NCBI GenBank assembly: GCA_030430495.1
Contig: JAUIKM010000007.1
Location: 51,776 to 115,775 of the forward strand
Length of the DNA stretch: 64,000 bases
DNA from: a bacterium
GTDB taxonomy: Bacteria > Bacteroidota > Ignavibacteria > Kapaibacteriales > UBA7675
Direction: 5' to 3'
Within the stretch, counting starts at the first letter, position 1. Each line of letters starts with the position of its first letter. Shown here piece after piece: positions 45,618 through 61,177 of the stretch. Under the pieces are notes generated by a model, which was not told the DNA's origin, made no database searches, and saw only the letters and a list, made by a program, of their open reading frames with translations. The position numbers were made by a program, and so were the translations under genes.

Positions 45618-47609
45618 TTGCGAACCTATTGGAACAACCTAGTGGCTGGTGCCGTGCAAGTGAAGACGGAATCCATCACCGAATCTCAGAGCCTGCCAGA
45701 TTTGTCTGCCAAACTCGTAGACGAACTGGAAGAACTGCGCCGTTCCAAACCCGTCGAAGCTATTTCTGTCTGTGATGCCCACCTCGGCCGTGTCGAACAA
45801 TCCCTCGCAGAGTTGCCTGCCAATGCAAAATTGCAAAGCATTCGTGGTTCCTTGCTTTTGATCCGTGGTACCGCACATTACAATTTGATCGAACTGGATC
45901 AGGCCAAGGACGATTTGGAAGCAAGCCTTGAATTGTTCCGACAACTCGGCAACGAAAAGGAAACTGCCCGTAGCCTCATCAATCTTGGACTGACGGTAAA
46001 AGCAGGCGGCAACCTTTCATTGGCCATGGAATATTTTCACCGCGGCCTCGACATTTCGCGAAGTTGTGGATTCACGCGCGGTGTAATGTCTGTCCATCTC
46101 AATATTGGTAATATCTACTTTGATCTCGGTGACTTTCCCAGTGCACTTGAACACTATCAGCAGAGTCACGTCATCAATAAGGATGTTGGCCATCAATTAA
46201 TTGAGTGTTCACAGCTCTCCAACATCGGTCAGGTGTACCGCGAACTCAAACAATATGATCGCGCCATCGAACACTTCCAGCGCAGCCTGGCAATTCTCGT
46301 AGAGTGCAATGATAAACGTCGCCAGGTGCGGCTTCACAGCAATATGGTCGGCGTGTACAATCTGATGGGGCGGCTGGACGAGGCCCGCAAACACGCCGAA
46401 ACGGCTTGGGAGCTGGCCCAGGAAGTCGACTCGCCGATGGGACTCGTTTTCTCCCTGGGGGCGCTGGCCGATATCGAAGTGATGGAAAAACACTTCGACA
46501 AGGCGCTTATGCTGCTGGAACAGGCGCTGACTTCCGCGCGCGAAATCCAGATGACCAAAGGCATCGTCGACAGCCTGGTCGAGATCGGGCGCGTGCGCAT
46601 GGCCCGCGACGAGTTTGAAGAAGCGCGCCTCTCATTTTATGAGGCGCTTTCAGTTGCCGAGAAGTTTGAACTACCTTCCGCAGTGATGCGCGTGCATGAA
46701 ATGCTCGCCGATTACCACGAGCGCACCGGCGCAGCCAATAAAGCGCTGCATCATTTCCGTCTCTTCCACAAGGCCGAGCGCGCAATTATCAACGAAGAGA
46801 CGACGCGGCGTACGATGGCGTTGCAGACCTGGCACGCCAGCGAGCAGTCGATCAAGGAAGCCGAAATCCACCGCCTGAAAAGCGTTGAACTCGTCAAGGC
46901 CAACCAGCAGTTGCGCAAAGTCAATCGCGAGAAAAACGAATTCCTCAGCATTGCGGCACACGATCTCAAAAATCAGCTCTCCGCCATCGTGCTGGCCTGC
47001 AGCGTCGTGCACAAAGCGCCCGAGCGTTTTACCGAGCAGGAGTTGCATCGCCAGATCAACAGCATCGGCGTCACCGCCGAACACATGCGCGAGATAATTC
47101 TCAACCTGCTCGACGTTAATCGACTTGAGAACGGCAAACTCGACATTTACTCGGCGGCCTTTAACCTCTGCAGCACGTTGCAGTCCGTCACCGACAACTA
47201 CACTCAACGCGCCGCCGCCAAAAACATTAACATTCACGTTCAGTGCCCCGAAGGAGACATCTACGTCTTCGCGGATCGCGATCTGTGCAAGGAAGCCGTC
47301 GAGAACCTGCTTTCCAACGCGATTAAATTTTCGCCGCTCGGTAAAAACGTCTACCTGCGCGCCTGGCGTCACGGGGACAATGTGCGCATTGCCGTGCAGG
47401 ACGAAGGCCCCGGTTTTAAACCGGAAGACCGCAACGACCTCTTCGGCAAGTTTTCACGCCTCTCGGCCAAACCGACGGCCAACGAACATTCAACCGGTCT
47501 GGGGCTGTGGATTGTTAAAAAACTGATCGACGCCATGGGCGGAAGCGTGTGGTGCGACAGCGTTCCCGGCAACGGCGCGACATTTACGATAGAACTGCCC
47601 GCAGCCTGA
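45618..47609 (+). CDS. TPR-repeat sensor histidine kinase
   Basis: TPR repeats (NLG/NIG..Y), AAHDLKN H-box, NLLSNAIKF, DEGPG, GLGL; start uncertain. Confidence 0.92.
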   Translation: MRTYWNNLVAGAVQVKTESITESQSLPDLSAKLVDELEELRRSKPVEAISVCDAHLGRVEQSLAELPANAKLQSIRGSLLLIRGTAHYNLIELDQAKDDLEASLELFRQLGNEKETARSLINLGLTVKAGGNLSLAMEYFHRGLDISRSCGFTRGVMSVHLNIGNIYFDLGDFPSALEHYQQSHVINKDVGHQLIECSQLSNIGQVYRELKQYDRAIEHFQRSLAILVECNDKRRQVRLHSNMVGVYNLMGRLDEARKHAETAWELAQEVDSPMGLVFSLGALADIEVMEKHFDKALMLLEQALTSAREIQMTKGIVDSLVEIGRVRMARDEFEEARLSFYEALSVAEKFELPSAVMRVHEMLADYHERTGAANKALHHFRLFHKAERAIINEETTRRTMALQTWHASEQSIKEAEIHRLKSVELVKANQQLRKVNREKNEFLSIAAHDLKNQLSAIVLACSVVHKAPERFTEQELHRQINSIGVTAEHMREIILNLLDVNRLENGKLDIYSAAFNLCSTLQSVTDNYTQRAAAKNINIHVQCPEGDIYVFADRDLCKEAVENLLSNAIKFSPLGKNVYLRAWRHGDNVRIAVQDEGPGFKPEDRNDLFGKFSRLSAKPTANEHSTGLGLWIVKKLIDAMGGSVWCDSVPGNGATFTIELPAA

Positions 47610-47710
47610 GCCGGCGGTTAACTCTCACCTGCAAAAACTCCTGAAAAATTCCTTCTTGTTTGTCATGCAGTGATCATTGTTCAACACGCGTTTAAACCGG
47701 AGATTGATAC

Positions 47711-48994
47711 GTGAGCGGCGACAGTCCTGAAACTGTTAAACACAATGGCGTTGTGCGCCTGACCGGCGTAGTCCAACACTATGCCTGGGGCGGCGAAAAA
47801 TTTATTCCAGACCTGATAGGAGTCGACAACTCCGACGGACGCGAGTTCGCCGAACTCTGGCTGGGGACACATCCCAAAGGGCCGTCAACCATTGAGTTAA
47901 AGGGCGAAACCATCGAGCTGGCGGACTTCCTGCAACGCGATCCCGCTCACAGACTCGGTGAGAAAACCTCCAGCCTGTTTAACAACGATCTGCCGTATCT
48001 GTTTAAGGTGCTCGACGCGCGTAAAATGCTCTCCATCCAGGTGCACCCCGACAAAGCGCGCGCCGAGCGCGGATTTGAAGCGGAGGAACGCGCCGGCATC
48101 GACCGCGCTGCGCCCAACCGCAACTACCGTGATACAAACCACAAACCCGAACTCCACGTGGCGCTTACCGATTTCTGGATGCTGCACGGCTTCCGCGCCG
48201 CCGAGGAAATCGCCGCCGAGTTCCGCCGCGTACCGGAGTTCCTCAACCTCGTCTACGAGTTCGAAGACGACCTGGCCGCCGGCGGCAGCGACGCCGGTCC
48301 ACGAGCAGTCGAGAACCTGTACAAAACGATCATGACCATGCCGCAGGGGCGCGTCGACGCATTTCTGGAGCCGCTGCTCCAACGCCTGATGCCGCGCTAC
48401 GGCGGCGGCGAACTGTCCAAAAACTCGCCCGACTTCTGGGCCGCGCGAGCCGCTGAACACTTTCCGCTGCCCGACGGCCATCGCGACCGCGGCATCTTTT
48501 CCATCTACATGATGAACCTCGTGCAGCTCAAGCCGGGCGAAGCCACGTTCCAGGACGCCGGTATTCCGCACGCCTACCTGGAAGGCGCCAACGTTGAACT
48601 CATGGCCGGTTCCGACAACGTGCTGCGCGGCGGACTGACGCCGAAACACATCGACGTGCCGGAACTGCTCGACACGCTGACCTACGCGTGCGGCCCCGCC
48701 GAGATTATCACCGGCCGGCAGGAGGGCGATGTGAAAATTTATCCCACTCCGGCCATGGACTTTGAGCTTGCGCTGCTGGAGCTGAGCGCCGGCACAAACA
48801 CAAAACGCAGCGCCGATCACGGACCGGACATTCTGCTGCTGATGGAAGGTCAGGCCCGCGTGCAGTCCGACGACGGAACATCGATTGAGCTGAGCCGCGG
48901 ACAGGCCTGTTTTGTGCCGCACAGCGCCGCGTATGTCGTCACGTCGGACGCCGCCGGTCGGCTGTTCCGCGCCGGCGTGCCCGATCCGCGTTGA
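47711..48994 (+). CDS. manA: mannose-6-phosphate isomerase class I
   Basis: Y.WG, AELWLGTHP, LSIQVHP, NHKPE, HAYL.G, SDNVLRGGLT. Confidence 0.95.
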   Translation: MSGDSPETVKHNGVVRLTGVVQHYAWGGEKFIPDLIGVDNSDGREFAELWLGTHPKGPSTIELKGETIELADFLQRDPAHRLGEKTSSLFNNDLPYLFKVLDARKMLSIQVHPDKARAERGFEAEERAGIDRAAPNRNYRDTNHKPELHVALTDFWMLHGFRAAEEIAAEFRRVPEFLNLVYEFEDDLAAGGSDAGPRAVENLYKTIMTMPQGRVDAFLEPLLQRLMPRYGGGELSKNSPDFWAARAAEHFPLPDGHRDRGIFSIYMMNLVQLKPGEATFQDAGIPHAYLEGANVELMAGSDNVLRGGLTPKHIDVPELLDTLTYACGPAEIITGRQEGDVKIYPTPAMDFELALLELSAGTNTKRSADHGPDILLLMEGQARVQSDDGTSIELSRGQACFVPHSAAYVVTSDAAGRLFRAGVPDPR

Positions 48995-49103
48995 CAGTTG
49001 CGATGTTTCGCCCCGTCGGCTTCTGTTCGGCTTTTGGTCTGCAGGTTTTGATTGCTCATATTGCAGGCCTGAATCAGAATCTCATTAAACACGGGGCCGG
49101 ACA

Positions 49104-49658
49104 TTGGACAGCAGGCCGACGTTGCCCGTAGACGGGCGTTTAACATCATCGTCAGATAAATCCGCGGGCTCATCAACCTGGCTGATAGTCGGTCTCGGCG
49201 TTGGCCTCGGGTTGATTCTGCTCGGCCTCAACTTCATCAAGTTCGCCTATCTGCAGAACGTCGTCTCGTTTGAACTCTCCGTTGCTGTGGCCGTCATTGT
49301 TGTGCTGGCTTTTGTGTTTGTTATTCGGTGGCAAACAAGAGATCAAGCAAAAAAGGACGCCGCGGAGGCCGCTCAAAAAGGCACTCCTGCGAGCGGGAGT
49401 GAGCAAACCGCGCGTGCAATAACTGTCACGACAGAAGAAAATCCAGTGCTGAGCATGCGCGAAAACCAGGTGCTGGAAGGCATGTGCCGCGGCGAAACCA
49501 ACCGCGAAATTGCCGAACGGCTGTTTGTTTCGCCGAATACCGTCAAAACCCACGCAGCCAATATCTACAGCAAGTTGGGCGTCAACCGCCGAGCCCAGGC
49601 GGTCCACCGCGCCCGCGAGTTGGGGATTATCGTCGAAAACGGCTCAAAAACGGACTAA
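49104..49658 (+). CDS. membrane-anchored LuxR-family regulator
   Basis: Two N-terminal TM segments and LS.RE..VL...TNREIAERLFVS.NTVKTH..NIY.KLGV..R. Confidence 0.88.
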   Translation: MDSRPTLPVDGRLTSSSDKSAGSSTWLIVGLGVGLGLILLGLNFIKFAYLQNVVSFELSVAVAVIVVLAFVFVIRWQTRDQAKKDAAEAAQKGTPASGSEQTARAITVTTEENPVLSMRENQVLEGMCRGETNREIAERLFVSPNTVKTHAANIYSKLGVNRRAQAVHRARELGIIVENGSKTD

Positions 49659-49681
49659 AAACGGGTGAGTTCACCGCAAAT

Positions 49682-49697
49682 TCACCCGAACGGATGA
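49682..49697. promoter_or_regulatory. candidate LuxR/NarL-type operator upstream of the DUF4199-like gene
   Basis: Imperfect palindrome TCACCCG-AA-CGGATGA; also inverted to CGGGTGA at 49662. Confidence 0.4.
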
Positions 49698-49791
49698 TGC
49701 TCGCCGCCGCCGCTCCAGACTAGATTGCCGCCGTAGTTAAACGCGTTCAACAATTGGCCCGTTTGCACGGGCGTACATTGGAGCAGAAAAC

Positions 49792-57749: not shown

Positions 57750-58169
57750 GTTAACATCCTTTTGGTTCTTGCCGTCGAGGCGCTTGATATGACAGGTAGT
57801 TATCGTTGTTGCCGGACTGCCAGTCTGTTCTCAATGGAAATGCGGGCATTCGTGAACTTCACGCCATCCACCAGCATGAGTTGAGAATCTTCGACGGCTA
57901 CCGCAAAATGATTCTCCTCGTCGAACTGCACCGTCGTCGGCAGTTCCTGCGCCCAAATGGACTGCCGGCCGATTATTAACCACAGCAGCAGCACCGGCAA
58001 ACAGCATGTCATTCTTTGCACTGTTGTCCTCGTTTCCGTTCAATTCCGATCCACCCAATTTACTGATTTTATTGAGATTAGGACGCTTTCAGAGTGCTCA
58101 GGGCGGGGGGAGGTTCAATTGTTGGCGCGGTCGGCGCACAAAAAAAATATCTACTCCCTTATTTTTCGC

Positions 58170-58201
58170 TTGACTTGCGCTTGTCTACTGACTTATATTT
58201 G
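58170..58201 (+). promoter_or_regulatory. candidate promoter of the Y-RNA array/rsr operon
   Basis: TTGACT-18 nt-TATATTTG, fitting both a -35/-10 spacing and the TAnnTTTG element. Confidence 0.45.
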
Positions 58202-58419
58202 CATCGTTGATTTGACGCGGGGCGCATTGCCTGATAAATTCCTCTTGAATTTTCTTGTTAGTCCCGCAGTAAAAAGTCAACAGTTTTTAAGTCGGTCGCT
58301 CATTCGGCGAGTTAACAACAGGTGCGCCGGCGTCCGGTACGAAAATTTGCATGTCTCTTAAAACAGGGGAGGCTATACGATGATTCATTTTGATGTTCAG
58401 CCGCAATAATTGCAATACC

Positions 58420-58519
58420 GGCGTCCGGCGCGGATAATGGTTACTTCGCATGGAGCAACGGACTACCTAATCCGTCCCGAGGTTCGATTCCTCATACCAT
58501 TCCAAATTTTACCGACGCC
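58420..58519 (+). ncRNA. Y-RNA-like gene 1 (anticodon-arm plus T-arm insert)
   Basis: GGCGTC(C)GG/CCGACGCC bulged-C helix, AATGGT/ACCATT helix, TACTTCG, GAGG-TTCGATT-CCTC T-arm. Confidence 0.8.
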
Positions 58520-58557
58520 TTTGTTTAAGCGCGGCTGATTGCTCAACAGCGACAATT

Positions 58558-58684
58558 TGCACCCGGCGCTGAAAACGGTTACTTCGACTGTCACTCGATG
58601 TGGGTTCGACTCCCACCCGGAGCGGGGTTTCCCGCCCGGCGGCTCGTCCGGCAGAGCCGACTCCGTTTTCCATTTTCCGGTGCA
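58558..58684 (+). ncRNA. Y-RNA-like gene 2, YrlA-type tRNA mimic
   Basis: TGCACC(C)GG/CCGGTGCA, GAAAACGG/CCGTTTTC, TACTTCG, T-arm GTGGG-TTCGACT-CCCAC, closed acceptor-like stem, D-arm GGCTC..GG..GAGCC. Confidence 0.88.
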
Positions 58685-58691
58685 GCGTTAT

Positions 58692-58809
58692 TTGCGTCCG
58701 GCGTTCGAGGTCGGTTACTTCGAACCCGGGCCCCATCGGGATCTTTTGCAGGTCCGGATGGGGCCCGTGGCAAGATCACCAAATGACTGCCTTACATTTC
58801 CCGACGCAA
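58692..58809 (+). ncRNA. Y-RNA-like gene 3 (long-hairpin insert)
   Basis: TTGCGTC(C)GG/CCGACGCAA, CGGTTA/TGACTG, TACTTCG, CGGGCCCCATC/GATGGGGCCCG. Confidence 0.8.
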
Positions 58810-59028
58810 TGTATTGTTGCCGCGCAGCAGAAAAACGCCCAACGAAAAGAACAGAACCGCAGTCACACTGACTTAAACTGTTCAGTCCGCATACAAACCG
58901 CACAGGTCTTGCATCCGACCGTCAATGCGTCGGCATCTGCGCTCAAAACTGCACGTGCCGCCTGACAACCTGCATTAACATGTTGATTGAATGCGGCCAG
59001 GTCCTGTCTGTTTGCCGCATCAGTCAAT

Positions 59029-59151
59029 GTTGCGTCCGGCGTCTGGAGACAGCTACTTCGAACTGAGGCCCTTGCGCGGCTCTGCGAGCCGCGCATGTTG
59101 GTAAGTTTCTGGATTGATACAATCCGCTGTTTTCGCCTTTTCCGGCGCAAC
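59029..59151 (+). ncRNA. Y-RNA-like gene 4 (two-hairpin insert)
   Basis: GTTGCGTC(C)GG/CCGGCGCAAC, GAGACAGC/GCTGTTTT, TACTTCG, TGCGCGGCTC/GAGCCGCGCA, GGATTG/CAATCC. Confidence 0.8.
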
Positions 59152-59222
59152 TTTTTGCCAGGTTGACATTGGCGTTCAGCGATGTTGAATTCACGTTGAA
59201 CTCGATGCGCGATCCCAGGACT

Positions 59223-59325
59223 CAACGCCCGGCGATTGAAATGGATACTTCGGTATAGAGCACCGGACTGTTCCGGCGGGACGTCGTTCCCATTCGCATG
59301 CCATTTCTACTTTTTTCCGGCGTTG
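59223..59325 (+). ncRNA. Y-RNA-like gene 5 (tRNA-fragment insert)
   Basis: CAACGCC(C)GG/CCGGCGTTG, GAAATGG/CCATTTC, TACTTCG, TAGAGCA-CCGGA-ctgt-TCCGG. Confidence 0.8.
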
Positions 59326-59366
59326 TTTGATTCCGCTGATACAGAAGATTGTATTGCATCGACTTT

Positions 59367-59501
59367 GTTAAACACATCCGGCGCAGATGACGGATACTTC
59401 GACTACGTCCACGTGGGTTCGAATCCCACTCGCCGCAGCCCCGTCTGCAGCGATGCTTTTGGTGAAGCAGAAACCGTTGTTGTTTTTCCGATGTGTTTAA
59501 C
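59367..59501 (+). ncRNA. Y-RNA-like gene 6, YrlA-type tRNA mimic
   Basis: GTTAAACACATC(C)GG/CCGATGTGTTTAAC, GATGACGG/CCGTTGTT, TACTTCG, T-arm GTGGG-TTCGAAT-CCCAC, closed acceptor-like stem, D-arm TGCTT-TTGGTG-AAGCA. Confidence 0.88.
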
Positions 59502-59671
59502 AGTTTAACACTGAAAGCTTGCACTGTCCGGCCGATCGATTCTCGTACAGAGACGAACAAAAAAATCATGTCAGAAAGGTGGGTACGAATGTAGCCGCCC
59601 GGATTTATTGCGCTGTTAAAACGATCAAATCGGTCGTGGACGACGATGCGCACATCGCATAGGAGGCCGTC

Positions 59672-61177
59672 ATGGCTCGATTTAACACTATTGCCTCGGT
59701 GCCGACTGTTGAAAACCTTGCAGGAGGCAACGTATTCCCGATTTCGCCGCGACGCGAATTTGTTTTTCTCGTGCTGACGTCGCTGATGCAGGATACGTTC
59801 TACGAGAAAGCGGATGTGCGCATGGCCCGATTGCGCGAGTTGATTCCGCTCGTGGGCCGCCGCTTTGCGGCACAAACGGCCATGTACGCACGTCACGAAC
59901 TGGGCCTGCGCAGCGTCAGCCACGTCATTGCGGCTCTGCTGCCGTCGGTGACGGAGAATTCTCTGTCATACGGCGGAAGCGATTTTTTCCGCCAGGTCGT
60001 GCGCCGCCCGGACGATATGACGGAAATCATGGCCGCGTTTGAGATGTTTAACAAATCCTCGGCAGGGGATAAACTTAAACTCCCGTGGGCGCTGCGTCGC
60101 GGTTTTGCCGCGGCGTTTAACAAGTTCGACGAATACCAACTGGCCAAATACCGCGGCGAAGGCAAAGCCTGGACCCTGCTCGACGTCATGCGTTTGGTGC
60201 ACGCCAAACCGACGGAAGCAAATGCGGATGCGTTGGCAAAACTGGCGGCGGGCGAACTGCGCTCCACCTCTACCTGGGAAGCGCGCCTTTCCGCCGGTGA
60301 GGACAAAGCGCTCGTCTGGCGTGAACTCGTCGAAGGCGGACAACTGGGAATGATGGCTTTGCTGCGCAACCTGCGCAACATGGCCGAACAATGTGAGGAA
60401 TCCACGTGGCTCGCAGCGCTGGAGCAATTGTCCAACGCCGAACGCGTGCGCGCCTCGCTGATCATGCCTTTTCGTTTTCTGACGGCGTCCAAAGTCATCG
60501 AGTTCTCGCGCATGGCCGCCGCGCGTAAAGCAGGCGCGCTGGAGGCTCTGTCCGCAGCACTCGAACACTCGCTGGCCAACGTGCCGGAACTCGGCGGGCG
60601 CACGCTTGTGGCGGTCGACATTTCCGGCTCGATGAGCCAACCGCTTGCAGCCATGTCGCGCGCTACCGCCGTCGACGTCGCCTCGCTGTTCGGCGCGGTG
60701 ATGGCCAAAAACATGCGGGCCGAGCTGATGGCTTTTGCCAGTAATGCAGGTTTTGTGCGCTTCTCTTCGGCCGACTCCCTGCCGACGATCGCCGAATGCA
60801 TTAAAACCGGCAGCGGCGCGGGCATCAAAGGCTGGGGCACCTGCGCTCCGGCCATCCTGGAGAAACTGCTGCGCGGCAAACACGCCTTTGATCGCGTTGT
60901 GATTATCTCCGATATGCAGACCTGGCAACACAGCGATTTCGGCAACGGCGACTTCCAACCCCTGTGGCACCGCTACCGGCGGCGGATAGCGCCGACGGCC
61001 AGGCTGTTCACGATCGACATTTGCGGGTACGGGCACTCGCTTGTACCCGAGCACAATGTCGCCGCCGTGGCCGGCTGGTCGGATCGAATCTTCACGTTCA
61101 TGTCGATGCTCGACAAAGAGCCCAAATCAATTGAACGGACGATTGAGGCCGCATTCCCGCTCGCAGACGGCAACTGA
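59672..61177 (+). CDS. rsr: Ro60-related protein (TROVE plus vWA/MIDAS)
   Basis: NLAGG..F, YQLAKYR, TWE..LS, LGMMALLRNLRN, PFRF, DISGSM MIDAS, ISDMQ, GWSD..F; AGGAGG RBS. Confidence 0.92.
   Translation: MARFNTIASVPTVENLAGGNVFPISPRREFVFLVLTSLMQDTFYEKADVRMARLRELIPLVGRRFAAQTAMYARHELGLRSVSHVIAALLPSVTENSLSYGGSDFFRQVVRRPDDMTEIMAAFEMFNKSSAGDKLKLPWALRRGFAAAFNKFDEYQLAKYRGEGKAWTLLDVMRLVHAKPTEANADALAKLAAGELRSTSTWEARLSAGEDKALVWRELVEGGQLGMMALLRNLRNMAEQCEESTWLAALEQLSNAERVRASLIMPFRFLTASKVIEFSRMAAARKAGALEALSAALEHSLANVPELGGRTLVAVDISGSMSQPLAAMSRATAVDVASLFGAVMAKNMRAELMAFASNAGFVRFSSADSLPTIAECIKTGSGAGIKGWGTCAPAILEKLLRGKHAFDRVVIISDMQTWQHSDFGNGDFQPLWHRYRRRIAPTARLFTIDICGYGHSLVPEHNVAAVAGWSDRIFTFMSMLDKEPKSIERTIEAAFPLADGN

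Follow-up and report, generated by a model that had tools for sequence, protein, structure and literature searches.

The window, that is the whole stretch of 64,000 nucleotides (nt) analysed here (contig JAUIKM010000007.1 of a genome of the order Kapaibacteriales, indicated as G000), contains at 58416-59502, on the forward strand, six tandem units, U1 to U6, in which inserts of three kinds are carried by one scaffold. The array is followed, 170 nt past U6, by an open reading frame of 501 amino acids (59672..61177, forward strand), for which Pfam reports a TROVE domain (E 2.9e-28) and a Ro60 vWA domain (E 1.6e-7): it is therefore identified as rsr, encoding a Ro60 orthologue. All six units are located 170-1256 nt upstream of this gene, on the same strand. 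Proximity to Ro60/rsr on the same strand, within about 4 kb, is the criterion used for bacterial Y RNAs by Chen et al. 2014 (PMC4201824), and 6 of the 6 units lie within this range. Y RNAs are modular, a constant Ro60-binding stem being joined to a variable effector-binding module, as described in a bioRxiv article (10.1101/312249); the array is discussed here as a set of candidate Y RNA genes.

Scaffold and inserts of the six units

The 5' frame of the units, CCGGCG-N(5-16)-TACTTCG, has 6 matches in the window, all on the forward strand, between 58425 and 59401; the mean in shuffled sequences is 0.04, and none of 100 shuffles reaches 6. When the whole 5.6-Mb genome is scanned, the cluster of such frames is unique to U1-U6. 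The interval indicated by the initial annotation, 58449-59473, runs exactly from the first base after the TACTTCG of U1 to the end of the U6 insert.

The ends of each unit are predicted to pair as one bipartite helix. At its base is a stem of 5-7 bp, extended to 13 bp in U6; a single bulged C follows, above which a GG/CC step, an asymmetric internal loop with a U-rich 3' side and a second stem of 6-10 bp, abutting YUAC-UUCG, are found. By duplex prediction, a bipartite helix with a one-base bulge is obtained for 24 of 24 units from four genomes, six of them from this array (-14.5 to -25.1 kcal/mol); the sequence of the second stem differs in almost every unit. In two genomes from another family of the order (G009 and G019, described below) the bulge is a U, and the GG/CC step is replaced by AG/CU. 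In published work (10.1101/312249; PMC12135203), Y RNAs bind Ro60 through a long terminal stem that contains a bulged helix. In YrlA, the tRNA-like bacterial Y RNA, the V region begins with a conserved YUAY (PMC4201824). GUCCGG, at the bulge of U1, U3 and U4, resembles the Xenopus GGUCCGA quoted by Chen et al. (PMC4201824). The bipartite bulged helix may well be the module bound by Rsr. The proposal of Ro60-linked RNAs built on a constant scaffold, already made in the initial annotation, is supported. Two dedicated unit finders, one based on a strict 7-bp rule and one on duplex energy, were dropped: both mis-set the unit ends, because neighbouring scaffolds cross-pair.

The inserts fall into three classes of two units each, as initially annotated: the two members of a class are 62% (U1-U5), 58% (U2-U6) or 53% (U3-U4) identical, while the remaining 12 pairs range from 35 to 51%. 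The U3-U4 pairing is marginal when judged by inserts; the 5' scaffolds of these two units are 81% identical. The accompanying statement that simple duplication does not explain the arrangement does not hold: the classes are three pairs of diverged paralogues, and are therefore explained by duplication and divergence. Within the window, no evidence for module swapping was found.

U2 (58560..58686, forward strand) and U6 (59366..59502, forward strand) are YrlA-type Y RNAs. In U2 a V hairpin (58584-58598) is followed by a T arm (58600-58616), a closed acceptor-like stem (58617-58639) and a D arm (58641-58658); U6, with its extended basal stem of 13 bp, features a T arm at 59413-59429, a closed stem at 59430-59453 and a D arm at 59455-59468. 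Both were evaluated by a covariance model, R1, whose training set consisted solely of eight YrlA-type units from G009 and G019 (31 pairs in the alignment, 14 with double changes). Both are matched end to end, U2 with 40.7 bits (E 2.5e-7, model positions 1-134) and U6 with 29.5 bits (E 9.9e-5), in agreement with the circularly permuted tRNA order initially assigned to them. According to the R1 alignments, the succession of T arm, closed acceptor-like stem and D arm, after YUAY, is found in U2 and U6 only; canonical T-loops (UUCGACU, UUCGAAU) and the GG of the D-loop are present. U6 also contains an inverted repeat (I5) with 13-nt arms, 100% complementary, and shows two double, compensatory changes when compared with its counterpart in the related genome G001 (see below).

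With default filters and E up to 10, R1 does not match U1, U3, U4 or U5. A seventh unit, sought in the leader and in the 220-nt spacer between U3 and U4, was rejected: even with filters off, R1 gives just 3.8-5.9 bits, and folding is no better than that of shuffles (z -0.55 and -1.25). A look-alike of the U2 scaffold on contig C35, called tRNA-Phe by ARAGORN, is located within a coding region and was set aside as a chance match.

U1 (58416..58522, forward strand) carries a tRNA-like body in linear order: a mini hairpin of D-like type occupies 58444-58455, the look-alike of an anticodon arm 58458-58475 and the T arm 58479-58493. Stem 2 of the scaffold leads, through UA, into the mini hairpin; next comes GAGCA, then the anticodon-arm look-alike with its 5-bp stem and 8-nt loop and, three bases further, the T arm (loop UUCGAUU). 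The strand returns from the T arm straight to stem 2, which occupies the position of an acceptor stem. The body is collinear with positions 19-64 of the genome's tRNA-Arg(UCU), with a score of 46, while 30 shuffles give a mean of 25.8 and a maximum of 32; the aligned elements are, in order, the 3' strand of the D-stem, the 5-bp stem with its 8-nt loop and the canonical T arm. The consensus fold of U1 and its copy in G001 is a four-way cloverleaf.

The U5 unit (59224..59326, forward strand) is a reduced relative of U1, consisting of a UUCG hairpin (59245-59256), which AGAGCA (59257-59262) separates from a hairpin with a tetraloop (59263-59276), and of a third hairpin (59278-59291). When aligned, U5 and U1 have in common TACTTCG, AGAGCA, the GAGCA/CGG elements and the order of hairpins; the third hairpin of U5 has no canonical T-loop. 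The assignment of tRNA pieces in linear order to both units is thus upheld for U1, by its tRNA-Arg(UCU) score, and only in part for U5, where GAGCA and the hairpin order agree with it and the third loop does not.

As a side observation, the Rfam Vault RNA model gives U1 (58436-58500) 11.1 bits, at a non-significant E of 5.1; the two have a GGUUCGA box and GGUUACUUCG in common. TEP1, which like Rsr contains a TROVE domain, binds Vault RNA. A literature search returned no paper on a motif common to both.

U3 (58692..58810, forward strand) and its paralogue U4 (59030..59152, forward strand) are hairpin units. The former carries a long G+C-rich hairpin with a U-rich loop (58726-58767; inverted repeat I1, 18-nt arms, 89% complementary), the latter two hairpins (59074-59094 and 59111-59125; inverted repeat I14, 10-nt arms, 100% complementary). 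Both fold far better than shuffles (z -6.0 for U3, -4.5 for U4). A pattern scan for T-loops finds none in either unit: over the array, the pattern occurs at 58481, 58603 and 59416 only. The description of U3 and U4 as GC-rich hairpins lacking a T-loop is therefore correct. In the minimum free energy (MFE) fold of U3, the 5' scaffold strand and the TACTTCGAAC segment (58702-58724) form a 9-bp hairpin that competes with stem 2; this pairing is preserved in G001, and U3 may therefore switch between two folds.

Conservation within the genus and recurrence elsewhere

Only one genome of the same genus, G001 (locus L001; Rsr 94% identical), is present in the genome collection. It keeps all six units in the same order. 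Identity is 88.0% (294/334) for scaffolds and 88.2% (328/372) for inserts, compared with 75.2% (569/757) for leader plus spacers and 83.9% for third codon positions of rsr; taken together, inserts differ from spacers with p 1.1e-7. For the single inserts, the numbers of identical positions, and p values of the Fisher test versus leader plus spacers, are 45/47 (p 2.8e-4) for U1, 67/76 (p 0.0057) for U2, 56/64 (p 0.015) for U3, 57/65 (p 0.013) for U4, 37/48 (p 0.46) for U5 and 66/72 (p 5.2e-4) for U6. When the rate at rsr third codon positions is taken as reference, conservation is significant for U1 (p 0.013) and U6 (p 0.043) alone. All hairpins of U1, including the 8-nt loop, are unchanged in G001, and the two substitutions fall between arms. 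In U5 an A-U pair of the second-hairpin stem is replaced by G-C, and the stem of the third hairpin is kept, with an altered loop.

A comparison of orthologous arrays had been proposed as a check on whether the units outside the YrlA class are simply decaying copies. U1, U3 and U4 are conserved above spacers, while U5 changes at the spacer rate; pooled, the four inserts (195/224, versus 569/757 for leader plus spacers) give p 6.5e-5. This value, together with the units of non-YrlA type found on the same scaffold in a second family and in metagenomes, supports the view that these inserts are not simply decaying. Pairing was compared on structures predicted from the window sequence alone, which are less biased; the consensus folds show 0 broken pairs, a count due in part to their construction. 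Changed pairs that still pair are 4 of 6 in U3 and 5 of 6 in U4.

Closer relatives were not found by a scan of metagenome contigs with the Rsr protein pattern. Contigs from four low-share runs provide no third lineage: two correspond to a G001-like variant, and two match T-loops only.

In the order, a match to Rsr at E <= 1e-40 is present in 9 of 254 genomes. In G009 and G019, which belong to another family and whose Rsr is 41% identical, six units precede rsr. Four of them are YrlA-type; of the other two, one combines a D-like element with a hairpin of 5 bp and a 7-nt loop, identical in both genomes, and the other contains a short hairpin. Because G009 and G019 also hold six mixed units, array size and mixed content recur across families, with a different make-up of classes. 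In the fifth unit of these arrays (L017:1638-1722 and L018:1610-1694, both on the reverse strand), the hairpin, with loop CUUUUAA, resembles an anticodon arm, and no T arm is present. A conserved leader of about 200 nt gives way, directly before the first unit, to a G+C-rich hairpin and then a run of T (about 2355-2395 in L017 and 2335-2372 in L018, reverse strand); this terminator-like element may serve attenuation or belong to a separate small RNA.

Five further loci of the order were analysed. For four of them motif patterns detect no unit, and rsr lies beside rtcB or other genes; the fifth (L030) features a single YrlA-type unit. In L031-L034, from a third family, rsr adjoins rtcB, no units being detectable by motif patterns, and a near-palindrome (CTGCGCAGAAAGACTGCGCA and variants) occurs about 100 nt upstream of one or the other gene. 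Since it lies in the promoter region and has a divergent gene as a neighbour, it may act as an operator.

A scan of metagenomes, by a pattern requiring one T-arm unit, returned at least 120 stretches. Among the 80 metagenome loci listed, R1 has 143 matches at E <= 0.01; a tally made by hand among the same loci counts at least 15 with three or more matches and at least 6 with four to six. Because R1 misses most units of non-YrlA type, the numbers of units per locus are lower bounds: at least 6 in L068, 5 in L072 and L096, and 4 in L113, L063 and L056. In L096 and L113, short units of 65-92 nt, not tRNA-like, are interspersed between YrlA-type ones, and the gene that comes directly downstream of each array encodes a product with an Rsr-like start. 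One unit of L113, with one hairpin and a T arm only, has the layout of U1.

Other metagenome units differ in the point at which the tRNA body is opened. In L039:6873-7014, L056:7065-7242, L122:162-300 and L144:474-611, the MFE structure pairs a leading GAGC with a trailing GCUC round three hairpins, of which one has a tetraloop, one is a T arm and one a closed stem. Such units resemble a tRNA whose circular permutation has its break in the D loop, at a point unlike that of YrlA, and U5 looks like a reduced form of this type. The last unit of L068 has GUAGAGCA and a hairpin with a tetraloop, then a T arm, a closed stem and what remains of a D arm.

In a sample of the phylum, R1 matches at E <= 0.001 are found in 18 of 151 genomes, with at most two adjacent full-length matches; the sample is a weak guide to array size, because G000 itself scores 0 in it and several matches, covering model positions 22-110 only, may be tRNAs.

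Elsewhere in G000, on the reverse strand of contig C56 (about 45648-49776), a 24-nt string of the CCGGCGTCAG...GTACTCCG type is repeated five times, with spacings of 0.9-1.1 kb. It probably reflects a coding domain present in several copies, and has no relation to the Y RNA array.

Promoter, leader and neighbouring genes

A candidate promoter of sigma-70 type is located upstream of the array at 58170..58199, on the forward strand (TTGACT, 18 nt, TATATT; 10 of 12 consensus positions). The region 58150-58220 is nearly invariant in G001, with flanks about 72% identical. This promoter may drive a single transcript including U1-U6 and rsr. Intrinsic terminators were sought between the units: 3 terminator-like sites are found, 2.7 being expected, and all of them are within units.

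Just upstream of the promoter candidate and inside it, at 58150-58202, two copies of a direct repeat of about 19 nt (TCTACT-NN-CTTAT-TTT) are present; both are conserved in G001, and the repeat may therefore be a regulator binding site. The leader, where 58254-58300 and 58380-58409 were noted, contains a 47-nt block identical in G001, and a tiny open reading frame of 9 codons preceded by GGGAGG, whose G001 counterpart encodes a different peptide of 10 residues. In the spacer between U3 and U4, 79% identical overall, two blocks (58816-58896 and 58984-59029) are almost identical in G001; neither a promoter consensus nor an R1 signal was found in this spacer.

Downstream of rsr, genes for a Na+/H+ exchanger and for CorA are found, which indicates a chromosomal context. 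The RtcB gene is not at the array, but on contig C36.

Relation to known Y RNAs and interpretation

All three insert classes have precedents: YrlA for U2 and U6, Yrn1 of Deinococcus radiodurans for the linear order of U1, and the hairpin RNAs YrlB and Yrn2 for U3 and U4. In the characterised species, two or more Y RNAs, of which one is tRNA-like and one a hairpin, are processed from one precursor with rsr, and additional Y RNAs have been proposed to widen the range of Ro60 complexes (Chen et al. 2014, PMC4201824). The array is a larger and more varied example of this known system, not a new one. The resemblance of YrlA to a circularly permuted tRNA, too, is already in print in 10.1101/312249, where the definition of Y RNAs is one of a constant stem with a variable module: the modular reading of the initial annotation is thus supported in part, and mostly restates what that text defines; the different partner that the annotation assigns to each RNA is putative.

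YrlA (Rfam RF02553) occurs in Salmonella Typhimurium, Mycobacterium smegmatis and more than 250 other species. U2 and U6 share with it the Ro-binding stem, YUAY, the V hairpin, the T arm, the closed acceptor-like stem, the D arm leading back to the stem, and the position beside rsr on the same strand. Unlike YrlA, they score below the gathering threshold, lack a strict GNCGAA motif and are present in two copies per array; they also show both strands of the bulged basal helix, a trait of Deinococcus and metazoan Y RNAs according to Chen et al. (PMC4201824). U1 resembles D. radiodurans Yrn1, where T and D elements are in the orientation opposite to that of YrlA and an anticodon-arm-like hairpin with an aberrant loop lies between them; U3 and U4 resemble Yrn2, a long hairpin, and the small RNAs a, b and d of the same species are also upstream of rsr (PMC4201824). 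Here, unlike in D. radiodurans, all units are built on the YrlA-type scaffold (YUAC-UUCG), and the likeness to Yrn1 is one of described architecture. Yrn1 and YrlA are regarded as independent lineages by Chen et al. (PMC4201824). Likewise by description, YrlB of Salmonella and M. smegmatis parallels U3/U4 and U1/U5; unlike YrlB, the units outside the YrlA class are four here, and of two kinds.

Metazoan Y RNA families (four in human) are alike in combining a conserved bulged Ro60-binding helix with variable loops for different proteins (10.1101/312249; PMC12135203); unlike the array, they feature no tRNA-like module (PMC4201824). A further parallel is the Thermus phage phiLo, with two Y-RNA-like genes, Yrl1 and Yrl2, upstream of a Ro60 gene; the RNAs of both bind Ro60 and host PNPase in vitro (PMC12135203). 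It differs from the array in being a phage locus, with two units and a CGAA motif that is absent here. As for genomic organization, metazoan Y RNAs are transcribed from separate Pol III genes.

In the literature search, no bacterial array of more than a few Y RNAs and no tRNA-like Y RNA of linear order on a YrlA scaffold were found, nor was the breadth of mixed arrays in metagenomes found described; the Wolin laboratory reviews (2018, 2019, 2020) may narrow these results, as may tables S1 and S2 of Chen et al. 2014, which give model matches per genome and may show multi-copy loci. What seems new is the array of six units, the combination of YrlA-type and linear-order modules on one scaffold, and the invariant 8-nt "anticodon" loop.

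We consider it likely that the locus holds six bacterial Y RNA genes, probably transcribed together with rsr from the candidate promoter at 58170-58199, as one precursor that would be processed into free RNAs of about 100-135 nt each. Rsr would bind and stabilise each RNA through the bulged helix. U2 and U6 would be tRNA mimics, joined to the stem at the position of a tRNA anticodon stem; U3 and U4 would be long hairpins of the YrlB/Yrn2 kind. The U1 cloverleaf, to judge from secondary structures, would be attached through the acceptor-stem position and would for this reason expose the anticodon-arm look-alike, with U5 as a reduced paralogue; the YrlA-type bodies and the U1 body may thus project differently from the ring. 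By analogy with studied Y RNAs, the RNAs may control, as gates, what enters the Ro60 ring and, as tethers, link it to other factors, for example PNPase or proteins that recognise tRNA.

Several observations weigh against this interpretation. No sequence of the window reaches any Rfam gathering score: YrlA (RF02553) gives U2 19.7 bits, versus a gathering score of 69, and does not report U6. The eight YrlA-type units of G009 and G019 are also under this score (28-46 bits), and the curated model therefore looks narrow for the clade. The published 5'-strand motif GNCGAAN0-1G is found in 0 of 6 units, GGCG alone being constant (6 of 6). With filters off, R1 finds the scaffolds of U5 (13.4 bits), U1 (13.0), U3 (12.2) and U4 (9.8) with exact unit ends, at scores that are in the range of noise, as a 24-nt false match inside rsr reaches 14.6 bits. 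U1 and U5 do not fold better than shuffles (z -1.15 and -0.47). Changed pairs still pair in 18 of 33 cases in the units and in 30 of 79 in spacer controls, a modest excess only; with one close relative, support by covariation is thin for the inserts of U1, U3, U4 and U5. Finally, none of the eight sequencing runs listed for the locus is of RNA, so that expression and processing are inferred.

It might also be that only U2, U6 and perhaps U1 work, U5 and possibly U3 and U4 being decaying copies, or structured precursor spacers with no partner of their own. This is unlikely. It would fit U5, whose insert is no more conserved than spacers, whose T-like loop is non-canonical and differs between G000 and G001, and whose folding does not exceed that of shuffles; U3 and U4, too, are not significantly conserved when compared with rsr third codon positions (16.1% change; p 0.28 and 0.26). 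Yet the folding of U3 and U4 and the pairs maintained in them argue otherwise, the stems of the three U5 hairpins survive though loops change, all six units are present in both genomes of the genus, and units of non-YrlA type are retained in G009 and G019, where the fifth-unit hairpin is identical.

A highly improbable alternative is that the array acts in cis, its units staying in the leader of the rsr mRNA as a site through which Rsr, or a nuclease, would autoregulate rsr. The single strong promoter candidate upstream, the lack of a convincing terminator or internal promoter between units and rsr, and the constant closeness of units and rsr on the same strand would fit; in studied species, however, the processing of such precursors yields Y RNAs that are free and bound by Rsr (PMC4201824), and six units of three kinds exceed the needs of a feedback site. 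Cis action and free Y RNAs are, moreover, compatible. The least probable idea, hardly tenable, is that U1 is a tRNA gene or pseudogene lying in the array by chance: in spite of its collinearity with tRNA-Arg(UCU) and an end-to-end but weak alignment to an Rfam model of the tRNA clan, its best match in that clan (14.4 bits, E 1.1; gathering score 47), ARAGORN finds 0 tRNA genes in the window, the D arm of U1 is cut down to a stem of 3-4 bp with a 4-5-nt loop, its "anticodon" loop is of 8 nt instead of 7, its acceptor-like stem continues into the common bulged scaffold with no free end, and its CCGGCG...TACTTCG frame is that of the other five units.

The interpretation as six Y RNA genes could be extended, in a way that is speculative and rather improbable, to a panel in which the Ro60 ring presents one tRNA body in different topologies. 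YrlA-type RNAs would be held at the anticodon-stem position, with the elbow exposed, and U1 at the acceptor-stem position, with the anticodon-arm mimic exposed to enzymes acting on anticodon loops; the related metagenome units would be opened in the D loop instead. The 8-nt loop of U1 is invariant between species, against a background divergence of 16-25%. If this were true, U1-type RNAs would let Ro60 sense, trap or recruit anticodon nucleases, or repair or modification enzymes; Ro60 would be tied to surveillance of tRNA damage, and the family would retain intermediate steps of the path by which YrlA is proposed to have arisen from tRNA transcripts.

These results leave standing the present view, in which Y RNAs act as gates and tethers. 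Work on bacterial Y RNAs has dealt with three species, each having two to a few of these RNAs; an array of six genes provides natural controls for the role of the tRNA-like module, the same Ro-binding stem carrying different tips in one cell. U1, where a linear tRNA-like body is set on a YrlA scaffold, blurs the line between the YrlA and Yrn1 lineages and bears on the model of an origin from tRNA. Mixed arrays of 4-6 units are found in diverse metagenome contigs: the Y RNA repertoires of uncultivated bacteria appear larger than the curated family model reveals.

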